NCBI RefSeq assembly: GCF_004010195.1
Contig: NC_057755.1
Span: 3,242,581 to 3,280,585, forward strand
From: Chiloscyllium plagiosum
Lineage: Eukaryota
DNA: 38,005 nucleotides
Direction of reading: 5' to 3'
Shown here: positions 10,440-37,760 of the stretch, piece by piece
Layout: each line of letters opens with the position of its first letter
How positions within the stretch are numbered: the first letter of the stretch is position 1
Notes under the pieces: model-generated
Told to the model about the DNA's origin: nothing
What the model saw: the letters and a program-made list of their open reading frames with translations, nothing else
Databases searched by the model: none
Translations under genes and position numbers: made by a program

Positions 10440-11152
10440 GTAGGATGTATGTATCGCTGGCTGGCCAGCATATATTACCCATCTCCAGTTAGCCCTTGAG
10501 ACGGTGTTGGCGAGCTGCCTTCTTCAACTACTGCAGTTCACATGCTGTATGTTATTTAAAAATGCCCTTGGAGAGGGAATTCCAGGCTTTTGACAGCGAT
10601 ACTGAAGAAACGATGATATATTTCCAAGTCAGGATGCTGAGTGACTTAGAGGGGATCTTGCTGGTACAGTTCCTATAATTCTGCTGCCTTGACTTTCTGG
10701 ATGGAAGTGCTTGTGGATTTGGAAGATGCTGTCTATGGCCGTTTGATGAACTTCTGTAGTGTATCCTGTAGATGTTGATGCTGTTGAGGGTTGGTGGTGG
10801 ATTGTGGATGTGGTGCCACTCATGTGGTCTGCATTGTCTTGGATGGTGTCAAGCTTCTTGAATGTTGATGGAGGTGCACCCATCCAGGAAAGTGAGGAAT
10901 ATTCCATCACACTCCTGAACTTGTAGGTGGTGGACAGGTTTTGGGGAATCAGGAGGTGAGTTACTTGCTGCAGTATTCCTACCTCTGACCTGCTGTTTTA
11001 GCCACTATTCATATGGTGAGTCTAGTTGATTTTTTAGTTAATGTGCCATCCCTGGATATTGGTAGTGAGTGATTCAGTAATTGTAAGGCTATTGAATATT
11101 ACGGGTTGTGATTAGAGCCTCTCTCGTTGAAGATGCTTATTGCATGGCATTT
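10440..11152 (-). mobile_element. CR1/L2-group LINE (second family), 3' part; continues at 16945-17570
   Basis: ORF 10629-10910 MEYSSLSWMGAPPSTFKKLDTIQ; the sequence is colinear across the Gypsy insertion. Confidence 0.8.
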
Positions 11153-11296
11153 GTGCGTGAAATAACTCGAGAGGCTGGTATCTTGTCACCAAGTCATCCC
11201 TTTATGTGAAGAGTCCTTGACATTGATCCAGCTCCCTCAGAGCCAGCTCTGAGTGAGCAGGATATCTGATATTTCTGTTCTTGTCTGGCACTCCTG

Positions 11297-11565
11297 ATCT
11301 TTTTTATTTCTTTTTAACCCCCACATAACTGCCTAACTGCGCTAGTGCTTTTTTTCCCAGCACCCATATTGTGTGTGTGCAGGTGTGATTCCTGTTCTTT
11401 TTTTTTCTTTTTCTTTTTTTCTTCTAAGGACACCCAGGCTCTAACGTAATCCCCTGTTTATTTTTCTTAATTTTTTTTTCTCTTTTTTTTCTAACCCCCA
11501 CACTACTGCCTAACTGCGGTAGTGCTTATTTTATTTCCCCAGCACCCATGTGTGTGTGCAGGTGT
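11297..11565 (-). mobile_element. Tandem short 3' ends of a Tx1-like element inserted in the left LTR
   Basis: Two poly(T)-AACCCCCACA...CAGCACCCAT...GGTGTGA units plus a short ORF2-derived piece (11421-11449, matching 16253-16283), each bounded by CTCCTG-like motifs. Confidence 0.85.
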
Positions 11566-14502
11566 GACTCCTGTTCTTATCTGTCAGCTAGGGCTCCCTG
11601 ATTGGACCTGTTAATCAGAGAAGTCATTTTCTCAAGGTCCCCCTGGTTCACCTTGTTACAATAACTACATCCTTCCTGTTTTGACTCTGAGGATATGGGT
11701 CAGTTCTTTTCTTTTGTAGCTCCTTCTGAGGTGTGTAGCACCAGGCCAGGTTCCTCCAACTGTGCCTCTGATACGGGTGGCATGTATTGCACAGTAGAAG
11801 AAATGCATTCTCCTGTTCAGGTGGCAAAGGTATCCAGGTGTTGATATCTGCTGTGTTCATCTCAGATTCCAAAGTATCTTCCATGCTTGATGGAGGGGAG
11901 AACCCATGGGTTCCTGAAGAGTCAAAAGGGCAGTCGAGGAGCCAGGCACATTTTGCTCCTGTAACATTTGCATTATTGCAGCTTTCATGTGATCCACATG
12001 TTTTTTAGGACCATCACACCCACCCAAACTTTGAATGTCACTGGACCTGACCTTGCGCCTTCCATGCCTCTTACCCATGCGGGGTAACTCCCATGATTCC
12101 TACACCAAACTTCATCCCCTGCAGTGAACCATCTTTCTCACTTAGCTGAATCTTGTATCCAGCATAATAACATGCCATCCTCTATGGTGATCTGGTCTCA
12201 CTGGGTCCAAAACATTTTAGTTCTAGTCATGACGTCCCTTTGGTTTCCCCTGTCTCCACCAGCTGTTTCAGTTTTGCCAGGACAAGACCTTTCTGCGTCC
12301 GAAGTGTGATTTTTCTTAACTGTGACAGGAAATGTTTCCAACTTGTAATTATACACACTTAGTATTAGAGTCTGCTGTTGAATTTGGCCTGAAACAATGG
12401 ACAGTACTGTCTTAGCCCCTTTAAGTAGACCTAATAGGAGTTTATTGTCCATTATTACTACAAAATTACATCTGTAAAGGTTTTGGTCGAACTTTCTGAT
12501 TTCAGATATGACTGCCAAATCTTCTTTCTCTATCTGGGTGTATTTACACTCTGCATTAGCCATTGGAGTACCTATGAGCTAATACTACCGTAATGTTGTA
12601 CAGGGAGGTATCGCATGTCAATACCAGATCTTTCTTGGGATCATACTGTACCAATACCCTGGAAAATGTTAGCAGTTTCTTCACTTCCCTGAAAGCTATG
12701 GCTTGGCTACGTGACCATTTCTAAGTGGATCCTTTTATAAGAGTTGATGCAAAAATGCCAGGATGGAGGCAAGGTTCTGTATGAACTTTCACCAGTCCAA
12801 GGAAAGACCTAAGCTCTGGTACACACATGGGATCCAAGGCACCTTTGATCGTTCTCACTTTATCTTCCAACAGGTGTAACCCGGTCTTATTGACTCTGTA
12901 GCCCAAGTAAGTCACTTGGTGTCTGGAACATACCTTTTTCCCATCTAAAGTGTACACCAGTCTGGGTGAAATGCTCAAGAACTAGTCCAAGTTCTCTAAT
13001 TGCTCCTTATTGGTCTTCTCCTGTTATTGGCACGTCACTTTGATAAATGGTGACCTAGAGTAGACATGGTAAAATGTTCTCCATTATCTGCTGAAAATTG
13101 CAAAGGCTAGCAATACCTGAAATGGCAATCTTTTGTATTTGTACAAACCCTTATGGGTGTTAATTGTAGCATACTTCTGGGATTCCTCATCTAACCACAA
13201 TTGCTAATACACATGGCTCATGTGTAGCTTTGTTAAGATCAGCCCTCCCTCCCTCCCCCCCGCCCCACCACCAACCAGTTTTGAGAATAAGTCCTCTACA
13301 CAAGGGACTGAGTATTTAAAGAACTGTGAAAAGCAGTCTACCATTTGTTTAAAATCCCCACAAAAGTGAACCGACCTGTCAAGCTTCACAATCAATATGA
13401 TCGGTGCTGCCCATTCTGCAAACACTACTGGTTTGAGGATATATTTGCTTTCCAGCCTTTTGATTTCTGCCTCTACTTTTGCCCGTAAGGCAAATGGTAC
13501 TGGGCAGGCCTTACTAAGTTATGGAATTGCTTCCTGGTCAACACGTAAAGTAGCTTTAGCTCCATTAATAATCCCTAAACCTTCCTGCAAGTCTTTCAGA
13601 AATTTAATTATGGTTTCACTCAGGCAGCCATTTTCTAATCAAAAAATGTTGAGCCAATTTAAGTGAATCTTTCTCAGCCAATTTGCCTATCAGTGGTAAT
13701 TAAACCAACTGCTTCTCATAAGAAACTGGAGCCAAAGTTGTACCCTTAATCTGTAAAGGTTCCCCAGTATATGTTCTCAGTCTAATTGAGGTCTTGCTCA
13801 AACTTAAGGGTTGGAGTTCAGATTGAATTTTGTTAAAGACCTAGAGTTCCTGTGTTCAGGATATGTCCTGAGTGTGGCTATGTAATTGCCTGCGCTCAGG
13901 TGGTGATCCCCATGCTCATTCAAACTAGCAAGGATGTATACATTCCGCCGGTAAGCCCTGCAACTCGGATGCTCCACTTGCTATATTTTCCAGTGATGAA
14001 GCCAGTTGGAGTGCTTGTTTAAAGTCGAGTTGGGCTCCAGTTAGTTGTCACTTTTGCATAGTTACATCATAATTTCACATACCAAACAGTGTCTCAGTAT
14101 CTGATTAAGGGTTAAACCAAAATCAAAGTCACGTGCCTCTGCCAGTCATTTTAACCCAGTCAAAAATTCTGATACAGATTCCACTGGTGCTGGAATTGCT
14201 GAGTAGAAGTGATAATATCTCAAAATTAGAGGAGGCTTGGGATTGTCATATTTCTTAATTAAATTCGTCAACTCTTGATAGGTTTTAGTATCTGGTGCCT
14301 CAGGGAAATTTAGGCTCCTAATAACCGAAAAAGAATGCATTCTTTCCACATACTAGGCCCAGTCTTCAAAGTCAGGATTGAACGAGTCTAGCTTCCCAAA
14401 TAATGGCATGATGCTAGAAATGCTTACCCCAATTCAAAGTCACCCTTTATTTACACTTGGAGAGTAAAACTCTCAGAGTGAATAGGATGTCTGACACTCC
14501 TG

Positions 14503-16824
14503 GTTTTTTTTTTCCTTTTTTTTTACAGACCGCATTTTTTTTGCTTTACTCCCACACTACCGCCGAACAGTGGTAGTGCTTATTTTTCCCAGCACCCATG
14601 TTGCGTGTGTGTGTGCATGTGTGAGACACAGTGAAAGACACAAGGTGTACAAATCTTCATTCAATTTCCACCACCAGGAAGAAAAACACCCAAGTCGCCA
14701 GTGACAAGCAGTGCCCTTCACATCAAAGCATAATGCTGTACGATCAAGCAGTGAAGGGGAGGGTAGAGATTAAATCAAAATAGAGTTGGAGGGGGAAATA
14801 ATACACTCCACTCCCTGCGGTGCTGACCTCTCCCTGAACAGCTCAAGGGTATTGGTAGACACTGCGCGCTCCTTCTCCAGAGATACCTGGGCTCTAACAT
14901 AACTGCGGAAGAGGGGCAGGCACTCAGCCCTAACGGCCATCTCCACGGCTCACTGCCTGGACCTGTTTATGACACTCCTGTTTTTTTTTCTTGCAGTACA
15001 CATATACTGATCCAGCTCCCTCAGAGCCAGCTCTCAGAATCTCTTGACACTCCTATTTATTTATTTTTAAAAAATATTAACCCCCACACCTTACACTAAT
15101 CTCCTACTTTTATTTTTTTAAATTTAACCCCCACACTACCGCCTAACTGCAGTAGTGCTTATTTTTTCTCCAGCAACCATGTTGTGTGTGTGTAGGTGTG
15201 AGACACAGTGAGAGACACAAGTTGTACGAATCTTTATTCAATTTCCACCACCAGGAAGATAGGAAAGCACCCGAGTGGCCAGTGACAAGCACTGCCCTTC
15301 ACATCAAAGNNNNNNNNNNNNNNNNNNNNNNNNNNNNNNNNNNNNNNNNNNNNNNNNNNNNNNNNNNNNNNNNNNNNNNNNNNNNNNNNNNNNNNNNNNN
15401 NNNNNNNNNNNNNNNNNNNNNNNNNNNNNNNNNNNNNNNNNNNNNNNNNNNNNNNNNNNNNNNNNNNNNNNNNNNNNNNNNNNNNNNNNNNNNNNNNNNN
15501 NNNNNNNNNNNNNNNNNNNNNNNNNNNNNNNNNNNNNNNNNNNNNNNNNNNNNNNNNNNNNNNNNNNNNNNNNNNNNNNNNNNNNNNNNNNNNNNNNNNN
15601 NNNNNNNNNNNNNNNNNNNNNNNNNNNNNNNNNNNNNNNNNNNNNNNNNNNNNNNNNNNNNNNNNNNNNNNNNNNNNNNNNNNNNNNNNNNNNNNNNNNN
15701 NNNNNNNNNNNNNNNNNNNNNNNNNNNNNNNNNNNNNNNNNNNNNNNNNNNNNNNNNNNNNNNNNNNNNNNNNNNNNNNNNNNNNNNNNNNNNNNNNNNN
15801 NNNNNNNNNNNNNNNNNNNNNNNNNNNNNNNNNNNNNNNNNNNNNNNNNNNNNNNNNNNNNNNNNNNNNNNNNNNNNNNNNNNNNNNNNNNNNNNNNNNN
15901 NNNNNNNNNNNNNNNNNNNNNNNNNNNNNNNNNNNNNNNNNNNNNNNNNNNNNNNNNNNNNNNNNNNNNNNNNNNNNNNNNNNNNNNNNNNNNNNNNNNN
16001 NNNNNNNNNNNNNNGAGACACAAGGTGTATGAATCTTTATTCAAATTTCCACTACCAGAAAGAAAGGAAAGACCCAGGTGGCCAGTTACAAGCAGTGCCC
16101 TCCACAAAGGGCAATGCTATGTCATCAAACAATGAAGGGGAGGACAGGGATTGAATCAAAATAGAGTTGGAGGGGGAAATGATGTACTCCACTCCCTGCG
16201 GCGCCCACCTCTCCCTGGACAACTCCAGGGTGTTGGTCGACGCCGCGTGCTCCTTCTCCAAGGACACCCGGGCTCTAACGTAACCGCGGAAGAGGGGCAG
16301 GCAGTCGGCCTTAACGACCCCCTCCACGGCCCGCTGCCTGGACCTGTTGATGGCCAGTTTGGCCAGGCCCAGGAGCAGACCCACGAGGAGGTCTTCAGAC
16401 CTGCCCTCCTTCCTCCGTACCGGGTGCCCAAAGATCAGGAGCGTGGGACTGAAGTGCAGCCAAAAACAGAGGAGAAGGTTTTTCAGAAAATCAAAAAGGG
16501 AGTGCAAACGCCCACACCCAATATATACTAGTCCACGGACTCCACAGCGCCACAGAACAAGCAGTTGGGCTGGGAGTCCGTGAACCACCGCAATCTGCGG
16601 TTGCAGGGGACTGCTGCGTGCAGCACCCTCCACCCCAGATCCCCGAGAGAATGGGGGAGGACTCCCGCGTAGAGAGCCCTCCACTGGGGATCCCCACCGC
16701 CCGGTGGCGACACTCCTGTTCTTTTTTTTTAATTTTTTCTAAAACTGTTGTTTTTTTTTGCAAAACCCCTATTTTTTTTATTTCCTGTTTTTTTTAACCC
16801 CCACACAACCACCTAAGTGCGGTA
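14503..16824 (-). mobile_element. Tandem stack of 5'-truncated Tx1-clade non-LTR retrotransposons in the right LTR (spans a gap)
   Basis: ORFs 16528-16713 and 16052-16684 give PQWRALY..LP...GDLGWRVLH...C..CG..ESV.HVY..C.RL (zf-RVT) and FWLHFSP.LLIFG.PV...DLL..LLL.LAKLAI..SR, which I recognise as closely similar to the C-terminus of Xenopus Tx1 ORF2. Copies are separated by GACACTCCT(GTT) at 14493, 14971, 15046, 16709 and 16825. Confidence 0.9.
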
Positions 16825-16944
16825 GACACTCCTGTTATTATCTGTCAACCAGGGCTCCCTGACTGGACCAGATTAACAGCTTCAATCAGGGAACTCATTC
16901 TGTGAGGTCCACCTGGCTGACCTTGTTACAATCACTACTGTGTG

Positions 16945-17570
16945 GTATGAATTACTTGCCACTTGTCACCCCCAAGCCTGGATGTTGTCCAGGTCTTGTT
17001 GCATTTGGACGTGGTCTGCTCCAGTATCTGACAATGGCAAATGATGCTGAACATCGTGCAATTATCAGTGAACATGCCCACTTCTGTCTTTATGATGGAA
17101 GGAAGGAAAATTACTGGATCAGCTGAAAATGGTTGGACCTTGGACTGCGGAGGTCCCTGTGGAGATGTCCTGGTGCTGAATTAGCTGACCTCTGACAACC
17201 ACAGTCATCTTCCTATGTGTCAGGTATGACTCCAGCCAATGGAGAGTTTTCCCCTGATGCTCATTGATTCCTGTTTTGCTAGGGCTCTGTGATGCAAATG
17301 CAGCCTTGATTTCAAGGTCTGTCACTCTCACCTCACCTCTGGAATTCAGCACTTTTGTCCATGTTTGAACCAAGCTGTAATGAGGTCAGGAACTGAATGG
17401 CTTAGTGGAATCGAAACTGGGTGTCAATGAGCAGATTATTGCTGAGCAGGTGCTGCTTGATAGCACTGTTGATAACACCTTTCATCACTTTAATGATAAT
17501 TAAAAGCAGACTGATGGTGTGGTCATGGTCAGTTTGGATTTGTCCTGCTTTTAATGTACAGGACATATAC
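16945..17570 (-). mobile_element. CR1/L2-group LINE RT region (continuation of 10440-11152)
   Basis: ORF 17119-17373 VQTWTKVLNSRGEVRVT.L.IKAAF...GKTLHWLESYL..RKM.VVV.GQ. Confidence 0.8.
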
Positions 17571-30977: not shown

Positions 30978-31640
30978 CTTTTTTTAAAACTACCACCAGT
31001 AAATACCTTTGTAGCCAATCTAATATTTACAAGCAAAATTTACCATTATAGGTAATGCAAACTATAAAAGGTGAGGGAGGGAGAGAGGGAAGGGGCTTAA
31101 TCAAAATGAAGTTAGAGGGGCTGAGAGTCTTCTTTTATGGGAGGGTCACTTTTTTTTATGTCTACCCAAAAATGTTATCTCACACAACTGAGTGACCTTC
31201 CCAACACCAAAATCACAATGTGTTTTTTTATTTAGCCTACTGACCACCACGAACAAAACAGCCATGTTACCAATTGAATATTTACAGGCAAAGGCCATTA
31301 CGGACAATGCAAAGCATCAAAGGTGGGAATGGTTTAGGGAGAGTGGGAAGGGACTAAATCAAAATGGAGTTGGAGGGGAAAGGGTCTGTTTTACCTTATC
31401 TGTTCTACCCAGAAGCATTTTCACACACAACAGAGTGGCCATCCCACCACTAAAATCACTGAGTTTTTTTTTGGTTTGTTTTAAATCTACTGACCATCAC
31501 CAATAAAAGACATGTAAAGCTAATTGGATATTTACAAGCGAAGCTCATTCTGTGCAATGCAAACCATAAAGATGAGCATGTTTGGGATAAGGAAGAGTGG
31601 GAAGGGACAAAATCAAAGTGAGTTGATGGGGAAAGGGTTT
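30978..31640 (-). repeat. Three diverged ~250-bp tandem units related to the Tx1-like 3' end
   Basis: Each unit contains ACCA.CA...AATATTTACA.GC...AATGCAAA and ends GGAAGGG.C.AAATCAAAAT.GAGTT..GGGG, matching Tx1-like 16155-16177. Confidence 0.7.
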
Positions 31641-32104: not shown

Positions 32105-32902
32105 AGAGAGAGCAGCAGCCAGGAGACCTTTACTGCAACTTCTGACCCTGTTGAGACTCTATCAGTAACTGATACTGAATCACAAAGCTAAATCCTGGTC
32201 TGTGGGAGCTGGCTGCACCCATCCAGGCTGCTTCTTTTGTTCCAAGAAAAGAACAAAAAACACTAGGACAAAATAACCTCTTAAAGCCACAGCATCATCA
32301 CACCTCTTCCCTTAAAAAAATGAACCATCAATATACAAAGATGACTTAATTTTTAAAACCCTTTGTCTCACTCTATTAATACACTACAGTACATGTATAT
32401 TACATGACTCTAACCATGCAAACATTCACTGCTACAATCTGTTTCGGTCCTTTTATTCCTGCCACTGAATGTCTCCGTCTTTTTTTGACAAATCGTGACA
32501 ATGGGTCAACATATATATGCCACCATGTATATAATTTTCAAATTGAATGGCTGCAATAATAAGCTCCATTTAAAGAGTCTAGAATTTTTGTCTTTAAATT
32601 TCTCCAAGAACTTCGAATAATTATGATCTGTATATACAATTGTCTCAGGCAAATTACTGGCAATAAAAATGTTGAAATGTTGTAACATCAATACCAAGCT
32701 CCAATTCTCCTTTTCAATAGTGGAATATTTCCATTGACTATTATTCAGTTTTCTGGAAAAATACCCAATAGGTCTTTCTATCTTTATGGCAGAAGTGAGG
32801 ATTGTAGATTTGCCCAAAACGTCGATTGTAGATGCTGGAAATCAGAGTCTAGATTAGAGTGGTGCTGGACAGGCACAGCAGGTCAGGCAGAATCCGAGGA
32901 GC

Positions 32903-34394: not shown

Positions 34395-36269
34395 TCCTCG
34401 GATGCTGCCTGACCTGTTGTGCTTTTCCAACACCACTCTAATCTTTCTATCTTCATATCAACTTCTTGCAAGAGTACAGCACTGACACCAATATCACTTG
34501 CCTTGGCAGTCCTCTGTCTGCTGAAATTTTCTGCATTTCTTCATTAGTGAGTTAGTGTAGTAACACACTGCTAAAATTTGTTGTGAACTTCCAAAAAAAA
34601 ACCACTCAGTTTCAGGAATGATAGTACTGTCCTCTTCATTGCTGTTATGGGAAACTCCCCAGTAATATTTGTTTTCACATATTGTGGGGCCATCTGTACA
34701 TGTCCGATAACATGGCCCAGGAATTGACTTGGACCTTTGCAAACTCACTTTTGGCCAAGTTTATCATCGAGCCTGCCTCCTGAAGTTGATCTAACAATTC
34801 TGATTGATGCTGCAGATGTTCCTTCCATATTTGACTAAAAATCACCAGGTCGTCAATGTATACATGCAATTGGGTAATCTAGAAATGACTTGGTTGCTAG
34901 TCTTTGAAATGTGGCTGGCACATTTTTCATACCAAATGGCATGACTCTAAATTGGAACAGTCCATTCGGTATCATGAAAGCCGAAATTGTCTCCACTCTT
35001 TCGGCTGAAGTTTTTGGCAGTATCTTCTGAGTAAGTTCAACTTTGAAACATAAGCTACTTGTCCCACCTTCTCCATCCAGCCTTCCAAACATGGAATAGC
35101 TTATGAATCAGNNNNNNNNNNNNNNNNNNNNNNNNNNNNNNNNNNNNNNNNNNNNNNNNNNNNNNNNNNNNNNNNNNNNNNNNNNNNNNNNNNNNNNNNN
35201 NNNNNNNNNNNNNNNNNNNNNNNNNNNNNNNNNNNNNNNNNNNNNNNNNNNNNNNNNNNNNNNNNNNNNNNNNNNNNNNNNNNNNNNNNNNNNNNNNNNN
35301 NNNNNNNNNNNNNNNNNNNNNNNNNNNNNNNNNNNNNNNNNNNNNNNNNNNNNNNNNNNNNNNNNNNNNNNNNNNNNNNNNNNNNNNNNNNNNNNNNNNN
35401 NNNNNNNNNNNNNNNNNNNNNNNNNNNNNNNNNNNNNNNNNNNNNNNNNNNNNNNNNNNNNNNNNNNNNNNNNNNNNNNNNNNNNNNNNNNNNNNNNNNN
35501 NNNNNNNNNNNNNNNNNNNNNNNNNNNNNNNNNNNNNNNNNNNNNNNNNNNNNNNNNNNNNNNNNNNNNNNNNNNNNNNNNNNNNNNNNNNNNNNNNNNN
35601 NNNNNNNNNNNCGATGGTGGTGAGCTGCCTTTTTGAAACGCTGCAGTCCACCTGCTGTGGGTTGACCCACAATGCCATTAAGCATATTTAATGATGACAA
35701 ATAGTAATTCTTCTTAAATATGTAAAACTGGCCCACGTTTTCTGTCAACCTGGCCCAAAAAGACAGGCAAATGGGGAATTTGCTGTACTTTCCAAAACCT
35801 TTTAACTTTTGTGATGGCTCTGGGAACAGCAGGGCCTTCCCTTCAGCGTGCTAACCCAGTGAGGGCTCACAAGCATTTTCTTCTCATTTTGTCTCGAGCG
35901 GGTTAAGTGCGATAAATGGTCTGTTTCTAAAAGATGTCTCAAGGAAACCTGTTTGCTTGTGTCTTGTCGAGTCACGATGTGTCAGCAGTTAAACACTCAT
36001 TGAATTGGTAAGCATATCCTATTGAAAAGAAATAATGCTGCGGTCACACGAGGGCGAGCTGGTTCATGGTTATCTGCAGACAAGGGCTGGTGGGTGGCAC
36101 TGGCTTTGTGGAGAATGAAGAAGGCGATTAGGTTGGGGGAGGGTGCGGTGTTGTAGACATGGTATGGATGGGCTTGCCGTTAAATACAAGTGGAGACCTC
36201 ACTGAAATAGTTTCTGTGGTTACTCACGTTCCAACCTCGACCTACGACCGTGGGTTCCTTTTTATTTAT

Positions 36270-37760
36270 TCTTCCATTGGGTGTTGCTGCCTAAGCCTGC
36301 ATTTGTTTTAAACCACTAGAGAAGGTGGTGGTGAGCTGCTTTCTTGAATCACTGTCGTCCATGTGCTGTAAGTTGACCAACAACTACATTAGGGAGGGAA
36401 TCCCAGGATTTGACCCAGTGACATTGCAGGGACGGCGACAGTAATTCCAAGTCAGGACAGCGGGTAGCTTGGAGAGGAACTTGCAGTGGGGGCGGGGGGG
36501 GGATGTTGTTCCCATGTATCTGCTGTCCGTGTCCATCAAGACGGTAGGGGTCACAGATCCGAAATCTGTTGTCAAAGGGTCCTCGGTGAGTTGCCGCAGT
36601 GCCTCTTGTAGGTGTCCCACTCTGTTACGGGGAAGCGATGAGGAAGGGAGTGCCATTTGAAGCTGTTCGATGACAAGTCTATCAAGCAGGTTTGCTTCAT
36701 CCTGGATGTACACAAGTTGCTTGATGTTATTGAAACCGCAGCCACCCAGGCCAGTGGGGAGTGTTCCATCACACTCCTCACTTTCGGACAGGCCATAGGG
36801 AGTCAGGAGGTAAACTAGTCACCTCTGAATCCCCTACCTCCGACCTCACTTTGTAGTGACAGAATTTATTTGGTTGATCCTGCTCAGGTCCCAGTGGATT
36901 GTAAGTGACAGGTGTCGTGGAGAAAATGTAGAGCATCACCAGGAGACGCAGAGAGTTCTTCAAGAAGTAGGTCTTTTATTTGCAAACAAAAAAACCATGA
37001 CACTGAGAAAGCAGATTCTCAAATGTCCCCGACCCTCATGGTCCATGGATTTTTATTTTTTTAAATCATGTTTCTGTGAGTTTATCAGCATGTCCAACTA
37101 TATTAATCAAAATACCTCACTCTAGCTACACAATAAACCAGTGATGTTAGTTCCCATTACCTCTTTAGTTGTACATTCTACTTAATGTTACTCTAATGTC
37201 ACGGTTAGATATTTATTATCACCTCTGCGACAGTAATCTTCCATTCCAGACTAACCTGTCATGATAGATATTTAGCTATTCCATCTATTACAATAGTCTC
37301 CAGTCTCAAGCTGACTCTGCTAACTATTAATTAGATATTTAACGTCATGTCCCAAATATTTATGGCCCCAATCTTGTCATAATGACACTTAACAGGGAAA
37401 CTAGCTCTACTAACTGTTATCTCATCTCGCCATAGGGACCTTTCAGCCTTAACCTTACTCTGCTCAATTCCACTATTCTTATCCCATCCTGCCTTCCACA
37501 GACCACAGATTGCCAGTGGGCTTCATGCTTTAACCTTTCCCATGCTTTCATGTTCTTTATGTCCCATACAGGATGTTAATTTGCAGCATGAGTCTCCTGG
37601 GGTCAAGTTTCAGGCCCCCAACCCGAGTCTCTAGTAGTAGGAATTAATGTCAGAGATCACATGACACTGCCCTTTGGATGACTGTACTGACCAGGTAAAT
37701 ACAACACAGGTGAGCACTTCCTCAGGGCCTATCGGCGCAGCAGCAAGTGAATGCCCTGTT
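36270..37760 (-). mobile_element. CR1/L2-group LINE (same family as 10440-11152) interrupted by a solo LTR
   Basis: ORF 36572-36796 KVRSVMEHSPLAWVAA; colinear similarity to 10490-11050; a further short piece lies at 35612-35680. Confidence 0.8.
36913..37570 (-). mobile_element. Solo LTR (658 bp)
   Basis: TGT...ACA termini, minus-strand AATAAA about 60 nt from its 3' end, ACAGG on both junctions, and a clean interruption of the LINE. Confidence 0.7.

Follow-up and report, generated by a model that had tools for sequence, protein, structure and literature searches.

Several families of the Tx1 clade of long interspersed nuclear elements (LINEs) are known to be target specific, among them Tx1L in Tx1D, Keno in U2 genes, and Kibi and Koshi in microsatellites, and two crocodilian families, Tx1-8_Crp and Tx1-4_AMi, prefer long terminal repeat (LTR) retrotransposons (Kojima 2015, PMC4494074). 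Tandem SINEU-3 insertions 'sandwiching a TSD' (target site duplication) are described as arising by sequential insertion (PMC4494074), and the endonuclease of Tx1L is reported to nick almost exclusively at its own target (PMC1950540). Here, we describe a 38,005-nucleotide (nt) stretch of the genome of the shark Chiloscyllium plagiosum (assembly GCF_004010195.1, contig NC_057755.1, positions 3,242,581 to 3,280,585; hereafter the window), in which pieces of a Tx1-like LINE interrupt both LTRs of a degraded retrotransposon of Ty3/Gypsy type. We consider it probable, at roughly 85%, that a target-preferring Tx1-clade LINE related to Tx1L homes to one position in the LTRs of a Ty3/Gypsy-type family.

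The closest named protein relative of this element is Tx1L of Xenopus laevis, and both are LINEs with an apurinic/apyrimidinic endonuclease (APE)-type nuclease that land in another transposon. They differ in that the target here is the LTR of a retrotransposon, whereas Tx1D is a piggyBac-type DNA element, and in that off-target copies are frequent here (5/23 resolvable loci). Tx1-8_Crp and Tx1-4_AMi present the same kind of LINE-LTR pairing, the likeness being one of preference for LTRs, and their hosts are crocodilians, whereas C. plagiosum is a cartilaginous fish. The pairing of Tx1-Mar with SINEU-3 in Mariner-N4_AMi involves a target duplication of ~16 bp and the same stacking logic (PMC4494074), but the arrays in C. 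plagiosum are much longer (at least 10 pieces in 3 kb) and consist of 5'-truncated LINE copies rather than of a short interspersed nuclear element (SINE). R1 and R2 in 28S ribosomal DNA are likewise site-specific LINEs for which a multicopy sequence offers a safe place to land. R2 relies on a restriction-like endonuclease, and R1 and R2 both target a host gene, not a mobile element; in contrast to these two, priming at poly(A) and a 15-bp duplication are the rule here. It has also been suggested that R1 and R2 are co-transcribed with their target (cited in PMC4494074).

An earlier reading of the window from its letters alone (the original prediction) knew of no prior description of the LINE-LTR pairing, for which the crocodilian families provide a precedent (PMC4494074). 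The LTR-targeting habit of Tx1 elements is therefore already described, and what is new here is a very abundant family, unusually close to Tx1L, with its site in a Ty3/Gypsy-type LTR. Among the listings of a literature search there was no Tx1 target from a shark or other cartilaginous fish and no LINE aimed at an LTR TATA box.

In the window, both LTRs are split at a homologous point by a poly(A)-tailed LINE, of which there are eight minus-strand pieces, each with GACACTCCTG or a shortened form of it at its borders, in agreement with the at least seven same-orientation pieces originally counted. The features are listed below in the reading direction of the minus strand, with the evidence for each.

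16838-16938, minus strand: upstream half of the 5' LTR, as seen from the insertion site, with a CCAAT-like box (LTR homology; 29 further LTR copies have this half too).
16825-16839, minus strand: target copy beside the LTR upstream half (exact GACACTCCTG).
16796-16824, minus strand: tail-only Tx1 scrap of ~29 nt (terminus at 16796; 84.6% likeness between 16775-16825 and 11471-11522), with A-rich tracts behind it at 16724-16795.
16709-16723, minus strand: target copy abutting the 5' end of the apparently youngest Tx1 copy (exact motif).
16015-16708, minus strand: 5'-truncated Tx1 copy with the C-terminus of open reading frame 2 (ORF2) (tblastn to Xenopus TX1 protein residues 1117-1305), its 3' end lost in the assembly gap.
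15310-16014, no strand: assembly gap of 705 N inside the right stack.
15126-15309, minus strand: 3' end of another Tx1 copy, with its 5' end in the gap (84.7% alike to 14534-14728).
15079-15107, minus strand: short, diverged Tx1 tail scrap (terminus at 15079).
14990-15055, minus strand: extra piece of LTR downstream half inside the stack, poly(A)-ended (15008-15037 is 96.7% alike to 11224-11253; motif at 15046).
14971-14985, minus strand: target copy abutting the 5' end of the apparently oldest long copy (exact motif).
14534-14970, minus strand: apparently oldest 5'-truncated Tx1 copy (82.6% alike to 16016-16352 and ~80% to the copy at locus L073), with its poly(A) at 14503-14533.
14493-14502, minus strand: target copy that opens the resident downstream half of the 5' LTR (exact motif at 14493).
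14436-14502, minus strand: resident downstream half of the 5' LTR, with AATAAA inside, running into the gag-side leader (comparison with empty LTR copies).
11669-14435, minus strand: internal region that keeps reverse transcriptase (RT) and RNase H and has lost most of the integrase (domain profiles, tblastn).
11567-11668, minus strand: half of the 3' LTR upstream of the site (self-BLAST, LTR sampling).
11483-11566, minus strand: 3'-terminal Tx1 copy of ~85 nt (84% alike to 11300-11399 and 84.6% to 15113-15201).
11423-11449, minus strand: 27-nt internal Tx1 fragment, then an A-run (92.6% alike to 16257-16283).
11302-11387, minus strand: 3'-terminal Tx1 copy (self-BLAST).
11287-11296, minus strand: target copy that opens the downstream half of the 3' LTR (motif with 1 mismatch).
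11160-11296, minus strand: downstream half of the 3' LTR (matches to LTR downstream halves in other loci).

The LINE pieces are 77-87% alike by self-BLAST. Termini of the AACCCCCACAC type occur on the plus strand at 11316, 11493, 14547, 15079, 15126, and 16796 with 0-2 mismatches, and GACACTCCTG is found at up to one mismatch at 11287, 14493, 14971, 15046, 16709, and 16825, together with one unrelated match at 10908; shortened forms of the motif were recognized by eye at 11387, 11450, and 11566. Pattern search thus recovered the termini and motif copies where the original prediction had placed them, apart from one terminus at 14547 rather than 14548. At up to two mismatches, the terminus is present 23 times in the window against 9.8 expected (0/100 shuffles reach 23), and at up to one mismatch, the motif is present 7 times against 2.3 expected (1/100 shuffles reaches 7). 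The copies at 16015-16708 and 15126-15309 overlap in element coordinates and must therefore be two copies, which upholds the earlier view of the first (given as 16014-16708) as a separate copy whose end lies in the gap. Comparison by eye confirmed that the two LTRs carry different stacks. The 5' truncation points, all thought to differ, do so in the right LTR, where there are at least three, whereas the two left-LTR copies at 11302-11387 and 11483-11566 share one. Outside 11.3-16.9 kb, the family is represented in the window by a single 37-nt match at 31345-31381, the relative already noted near 31 kb. As a separate observation, a fragment reading GTTACGTTAGAGCC...GGAGAA with an A-run immediately behind it is common to 11423-11449 and locus L005, which are unrelated loci, and its end lies in a purine-rich part of ORF2. 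Internal priming, premature polyadenylation, or the spreading of a stack-derived composite may account for it.

The motif is LTR sequence that becomes duplicated when the LINE inserts. With the LTR half upstream of the site as query, 1198 candidates were obtained, from which 29 other copies (77-83% alike) were taken, and 24 of the 29 are contiguous through the site and free of LINE sequence (L013, for example, reads ...gacagataagaacaggagtgtcagacatcc...), so that, as predicted, removing the inserts restores an LTR of the kind that reads through the site elsewhere. In L017, L028, and L035, the LINE stands directly after GTGTC. Locus L020 holds an A-rich tract of ~50 nt as the sole insert at its LTR site (1300-1620), with GGAGTGT on both sides, as might be left by a retrotransposition event that aborted or delivered nothing but a tail, and L015 holds something other than the LINE. 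The anatomy of an occupied site is exemplified by L028, in which the LTR upstream half is followed by AAGAACAGGAGTGTC, a 5'-truncated LINE, poly(A), GAACAGGAGTGTC, and the LTR downstream half. The duplications vary from locus to locus and agree on both sides of the insert, with AAGAAAAGGATTAT in L040, TAAACAGGATTGT in L062, and CAAGAGTG in L008, and the variant ATAAACCAGAGTGTC is present at all three junctions of the stack in L073 that holds a long copy. Inserts have ...CAGATA[AG/TA]AACAGGAGTGTC on their upstream side, whereas poly(A) and the same 13-15 bases follow on their downstream side; as the same bases bound the insert on both sides, each event duplicates ~15 bp of target (13-15 bp, with the upstream limit blurred by the A-tract). 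Given that the duplications follow each local LTR variant and that empty LTRs are contiguous, the motif is target and not element, the latter being a possibility that the original prediction had itself raised. Second, empty LTR copies are found less than 1 kb from occupied ones at L040 (2300-2534, in opposite orientation) and L044 (2421-2635), indicating that the LTR family clusters.

LINE pieces at the homologous place in both window LTRs and in other LTR copies would also be expected if an ancestral LTR had captured the LINE 3' end and this composite had then spread by LTR retrotransposition. We find such an origin barely credible, as it is already contradicted by the empty sites (24/29 LTR copies), and both the different stacks of the two window LTRs and the variation in insert length and truncation point between LTR copies speak against it as well. 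Another explanation to be weighed is that the window stack reflects misassembly in a region full of repeats, given that a 705-N gap lies inside it and that public unitigs on 14430-17000 (X1, X2, X4, and X21; 98%) are ~60 nt long, none of them bridging a junction; at most 0.30 of the sampled words are present in any public run. However, the same architecture is found at dozens of loci on many contigs, with locus-specific duplication variants, and we therefore hold an artefact to be highly improbable. Among the public runs, the poly(A) single-cell RNA run X21 has 28 reads on the LINE parts of 14430-17000 at 98% or above, and since their loose ends continue into longer copies elsewhere, it is the family, and not this locus, that is present in RNA at a low level.

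Genome-wide, the preference for the LTR site is strong, not absolute. The tail 15-mer GGTAGTGTGGGGGTT has 4576 exact matches, compared with 45 for the reversed control, and ACAGGRG is found 3-33 nt past the tail in 833 cases and 34-64 nt past it in 674 (a few tails being counted in both ranges), compared with 0 for the control in both. The LTR-side 20-mer CAGATAWRAACAGGAGTGTC is present 1454 times (control 0); 832 of these matches continue with AGA as in empty sites, and the other 622 are a mixture of filled and mutated sites. For a sample of 3' ends, the tail of L003, which lies in a non-LTR context, served as query and the best 30 loci were mapped; without L039, which is the query copy, and L054, for its overlap with L043, there were 28 independent loci, which are the top scorers for one query and not a random draw. 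The LTR half is found on the expected side and strand in 18 of the 28, within 110 nt of the outermost LINE piece in 17 and at 700 nt in L042, while in a further five (L043, L050, L052, L058, and L065) the array extends beyond the 3.2-kb locus on either side. Tabulation of 3' flanks, the check originally suggested, thus shows LTR context to dominate. A family has been called target specific when more than 20% of its flanks are of one sequence kind (Kojima 2015, PMC4494074), a share exceeded by the 18/28 3'-end loci in the LTR site. The orientation of the LINE is that of the LTR in every case seen, namely these 18 loci, L002, L008, L017, L028, L035, L073, and both window LTRs.

As judged by protein similarity, the inserted element is a Tx1-clade LINE closely related to Xenopus Tx1L. 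A first look in the 3.56-Gb assembly gave 4716 candidate relatives for the 693 nt at 16016-16708, and the 40 of these that were scored are 91-95% alike to the query, the window itself aside. RVT_1 is recognized in the ORF2 frame of the long copy L074 (E 4.5e-33), and the RT region is 59% identical over 501 amino acids (aa; 100% cover, E 4.8e-181) to the Xenopus laevis 'Transposon TX1 uncharacterized 149 kDa protein' (YTX2_XENLA), with further RT-region matches carrying the source names 'transposon TX1' or 'YTX2'; the clade was assigned by similarity ranking of the RT region. ORF2 is collinear with that of Xenopus Tx1L (51% identity, 949 aa), and across 110 aa, the N-terminal APE-type endonuclease shares 41% identity with the Tx1L protein (residues 101-210; E 1e-27). 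The Tx1-clade identity given to the pieces in the original prediction is borne out by the RT and ORF2 comparisons. Domain matches of lower score comprise Exo_endo_phos upstream of RT in L074 (E 0.0013, below the Pfam cut-off, L074 being frameshifted there), zf-RVT at the ORF2 C-terminus in L071 (E 8.5e-5; 23.6 bits, under the cut-off of 27.5), and zf-CCHC in the ORF1-side frame of L074 (E 0.0084, below the curated cut-off). The long copies L073 and L074 both contain N gaps, and no intact element was recovered; long open frames in such copies are tentative, since N runs read as open. In Tx1L, the stretch that contains RDGH is a DNA-contacting hairpin loop (PMC1950540); the matching stretch is 3 residues shorter in L074, and this difference in loop length, coming from one frameshifted copy, is only a lead.

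After copies from its own genome, the nearest database relatives of the element are unnamed sea turtle proteins (Caretta, Lepidochelys, Natator, and Eretmochelys; 54-59%) and the Xenopus Tx1 protein. A stingray model annotated as 'von Willebrand factor A domain-containing protein 7-like' is 64% identical over 71% of the RT region, and this gene model probably includes a LINE fragment.

The element that hosts the insertions is an old, degraded LTR retrotransposon on the minus strand at 11.16-16.94 kb of the window, and its pol domain set and homologues mark it as being of Ty3/Gypsy type. RT_RNaseH (E 1e-7) and RT_RNaseH_2 (38.3 bits, cut-off 29.8) are present in the internal region, and homologues of the window RT piece carry RVT_1, RT_RNaseH, Integrase_H2C2, and rve, which agrees with the Gypsy LTR that had been named as the target. 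In tblastn of the window against the pol protein P0122, residues 385-849 are aligned and the next aligned block is 1195-1231, and this jump from 849 to 1195 implies that most of the integrase is deleted in the window copy; the order of the pol parts is RT-RNase H at 13683-12327 and, after it, the end of the integrase at 12137-12027. On either side of the internal region, the LTR halves stand in the expected order, with the window pair (16828-16938 and 11567-11668) only 76.8% alike over 112 nt by self-BLAST. Since a Gypsy internal region adjoins the LTR in 17/29 other LTR loci, the targeted repeat is a genuine LTR. Other LTR copies begin TGTAGTGATTG- and finish -TTATTTCA. A purine run stands just before the 3' LTR of the window element, and a clear primer binding site was not found by eye in the window.

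Elsewhere in the window, weak pol remnants of Ty3/Gypsy type lie on the minus strand at 32554-32778 (E 3.6e-5) and 34741-35095 (E 3.7e-7; both by tblastn to P0124), adjoining the second assembly gap at 35112-35611. A direct repeat pair of ~165 nt at 10826-10991 and 36689-36846, 67.7% alike, is of no recognized type.

Several observations weigh against the homing of this LINE to one LTR position. Among the 28 3'-end loci, five (5/23 resolvable) are off target, namely L045, L047, L048, L051, and L064, each with its own 11-16-bp duplication, and L003, L005, and L007 from the first sample likewise have unrelated flanks and duplications of their own. The site-specific targeting originally proposed therefore stands as a strong preference for the LTR and fails as an absolute rule. 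Off-target duplications open with AT(A/T)AA-like sequence in L003, L005, L048, L051, and L064, and the inferred nick site is A/T-rich, as would be expected of a loose, L1-like endonuclease acting at T/A steps, with the enrichment in LTRs owed to chromatin or to transcriptional activity of the LTR promoter. This explanation is very unlikely in our view, given that both junctions lie at identical nucleotides in every occupied LTR examined, that the duplications of L003 (ATTAAAGATGAGTTTG), L045 (AAAAGCAGGAG), and L048 (ATAACCAATGG) resemble the LTR site beyond the nick, and that the endonuclease of Tx1L, its nearest relative, is sequence specific (PMC1950540). Some off-target duplications contain GAGT, AGTG, or CAGGAG.

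The state of the host copy has to be counted on the same side. The two window LTRs are ~77% alike and lack a flanking duplication, a repeat of 4-6 bp on either side of the Gypsy element (from 16939 compared with below 11159) not having been found by eye. A single integration event for both LTRs is likely, and the old age of the copy may be the reason that neither a flanking duplication nor a primer binding site is seen.

The last of these points concerns the stacks. Same-orientation stacks are common across the genome and are a property of the family: 58 of the 100 first-listed tail 15-mer matches lie within 3 kb of a same-strand neighbouring match, and arrays comprise up to at least 10 pieces in 3 kb (L043, L050, and L053). 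Truncation points repeat within arrays, with six units at one point in L041, which fits local duplication or the re-mobilization of truncated units better than independent hits. Such recurrence, seen in L041, L043, L050, L055, L065, L017, L035, and the left-LTR pair of the window, is what would be observed if arrays grew mainly because the 15-bp repeats and homologous units underwent unequal crossing-over or slippage, in which case the stacks would say little about targeting. However, units are no more alike within arrays (identity 0.940, 120 pairs) than between them (0.939, 3535 pairs), and arrays mix truncation points, of which the right LTR of the window has at least three. In addition, independent LTR copies hold inserts at the same nucleotide with duplication variants of their own, so that targeting would be needed even if arrays duplicate. 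We consider array growth mainly by such exchange unlikely. A recent local duplication of array units is unsupported by the same identities (0.940 and 0.939), and, because these are equal, neither local duplication nor re-mobilization is demonstrated; old duplication, or the re-insertion of transcripts from truncated units, may underlie the shared points. The earlier view of the stacks as repeated hits holds as far as repeated targeting goes, but part of the stack content does not go back to simple independent hits, as truncation points repeat and LTR pieces have been carried in.

The segments carried in are parts of downstream halves of foreign LTRs, at 14990-15055 of the window and at 2403-2473 of L002, which differ from the adjacent resident half and each end in an A-run near the LTR AATAAA. 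By their sequence, they look like 3' transductions from source copies located in other LTRs. Loci L005 and L064 contain two-unit composites with LTR-derived motif, off target and inside a single duplication, which fits retrotransposed read-through transcripts of stacks. In the right stack of the window, identity to relatives falls from 5' to 3' (~93-95%, 84-90%, and ~80%), consistent with the youngest unit lying beside the LTR upstream half. Across 13 arrays, this gradient amounts to a weak trend (mean rho -0.15, 8/13 negative; pooled rho -0.25, p 0.056).

In the homing of the LINE to a single LTR position, integration proceeds by target-primed reverse transcription at that position and in the orientation of the LTR. 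The limits of the duplication suggest that the first nick, on the bottom strand, would fall at the T/A step between GAT and ATAAAC (or between GAT and AAGAAC), and the second, on the top strand, right after GTGTC. The APE-type endonuclease of the element would read a site of ~20 bp and is the presumed site recognizer. Microhomology with ...GAGTGTC may guide the joining of the 5' end of the cDNA; the element resembles ...GAGTGTC at many 5' junctions, and the truncation at GAAGGGCAGTG is found in L017, L035, L057, L063, and L067 and that at GTGTCTCACACC in the window and L002. Each insertion leaves the site in two copies, and more LINE copies then accumulate head to tail. Resident copies would be transcribed into the LTR, use its AATAAA, and carry LTR pieces to new sites.

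The commonest variant of the site genome-wide, CAGATATAAACAGGAGTGTC, contains TATAAA, and the TATAAAC form is the commonest among the matches listed. A conserved CCAAT lies 27 nt upstream of TATAAA, and AATAAA lies ~95 nt downstream. On the strength of these signals, the targeted site is plausibly the LTR promoter, and the landing site would be its TATA box, placing inserts between promoter and start site. Considerably more tentative, and in our estimate doubtful, is the proposal that the LINE takes over the LTR transcription unit and acts as both disabler and user of the Gypsy promoter. A sense insertion would duplicate the TATA box and sever the LTR start site from its promoter, and every copy, including 5'-truncated copies that lack a promoter, would be set behind the LTR promoter and before the LTR AATAAA. 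If this take-over is real, the foreign LTR pieces at 14990-15055 and in L002 would be traces of re-mobilized, LTR-driven read-through transcripts, and the composites of L005 and L064, as well as the truncation classes shared between arrays, would be explained likewise.

The C. plagiosum family provides a second well-populated natural case, beside the frog Tx1L, in which an enzyme of the Tx1L type has a target that is long and can be defined. As its protein is 51-59% identical to Tx1L and its site is different, the pair offers material on how APE-type LINE endonucleases read sequence, with relevance to site-directed, RNA-templated insertion. For annotation, the family accounts for truncated LINE tails piled up in tandem by the thousands, which might otherwise pass for satellites or misassemblies. 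With the copies of a single stack ranging from ~80% to ~95% identity to their relatives, it represents one mobile family living on another over a long time.

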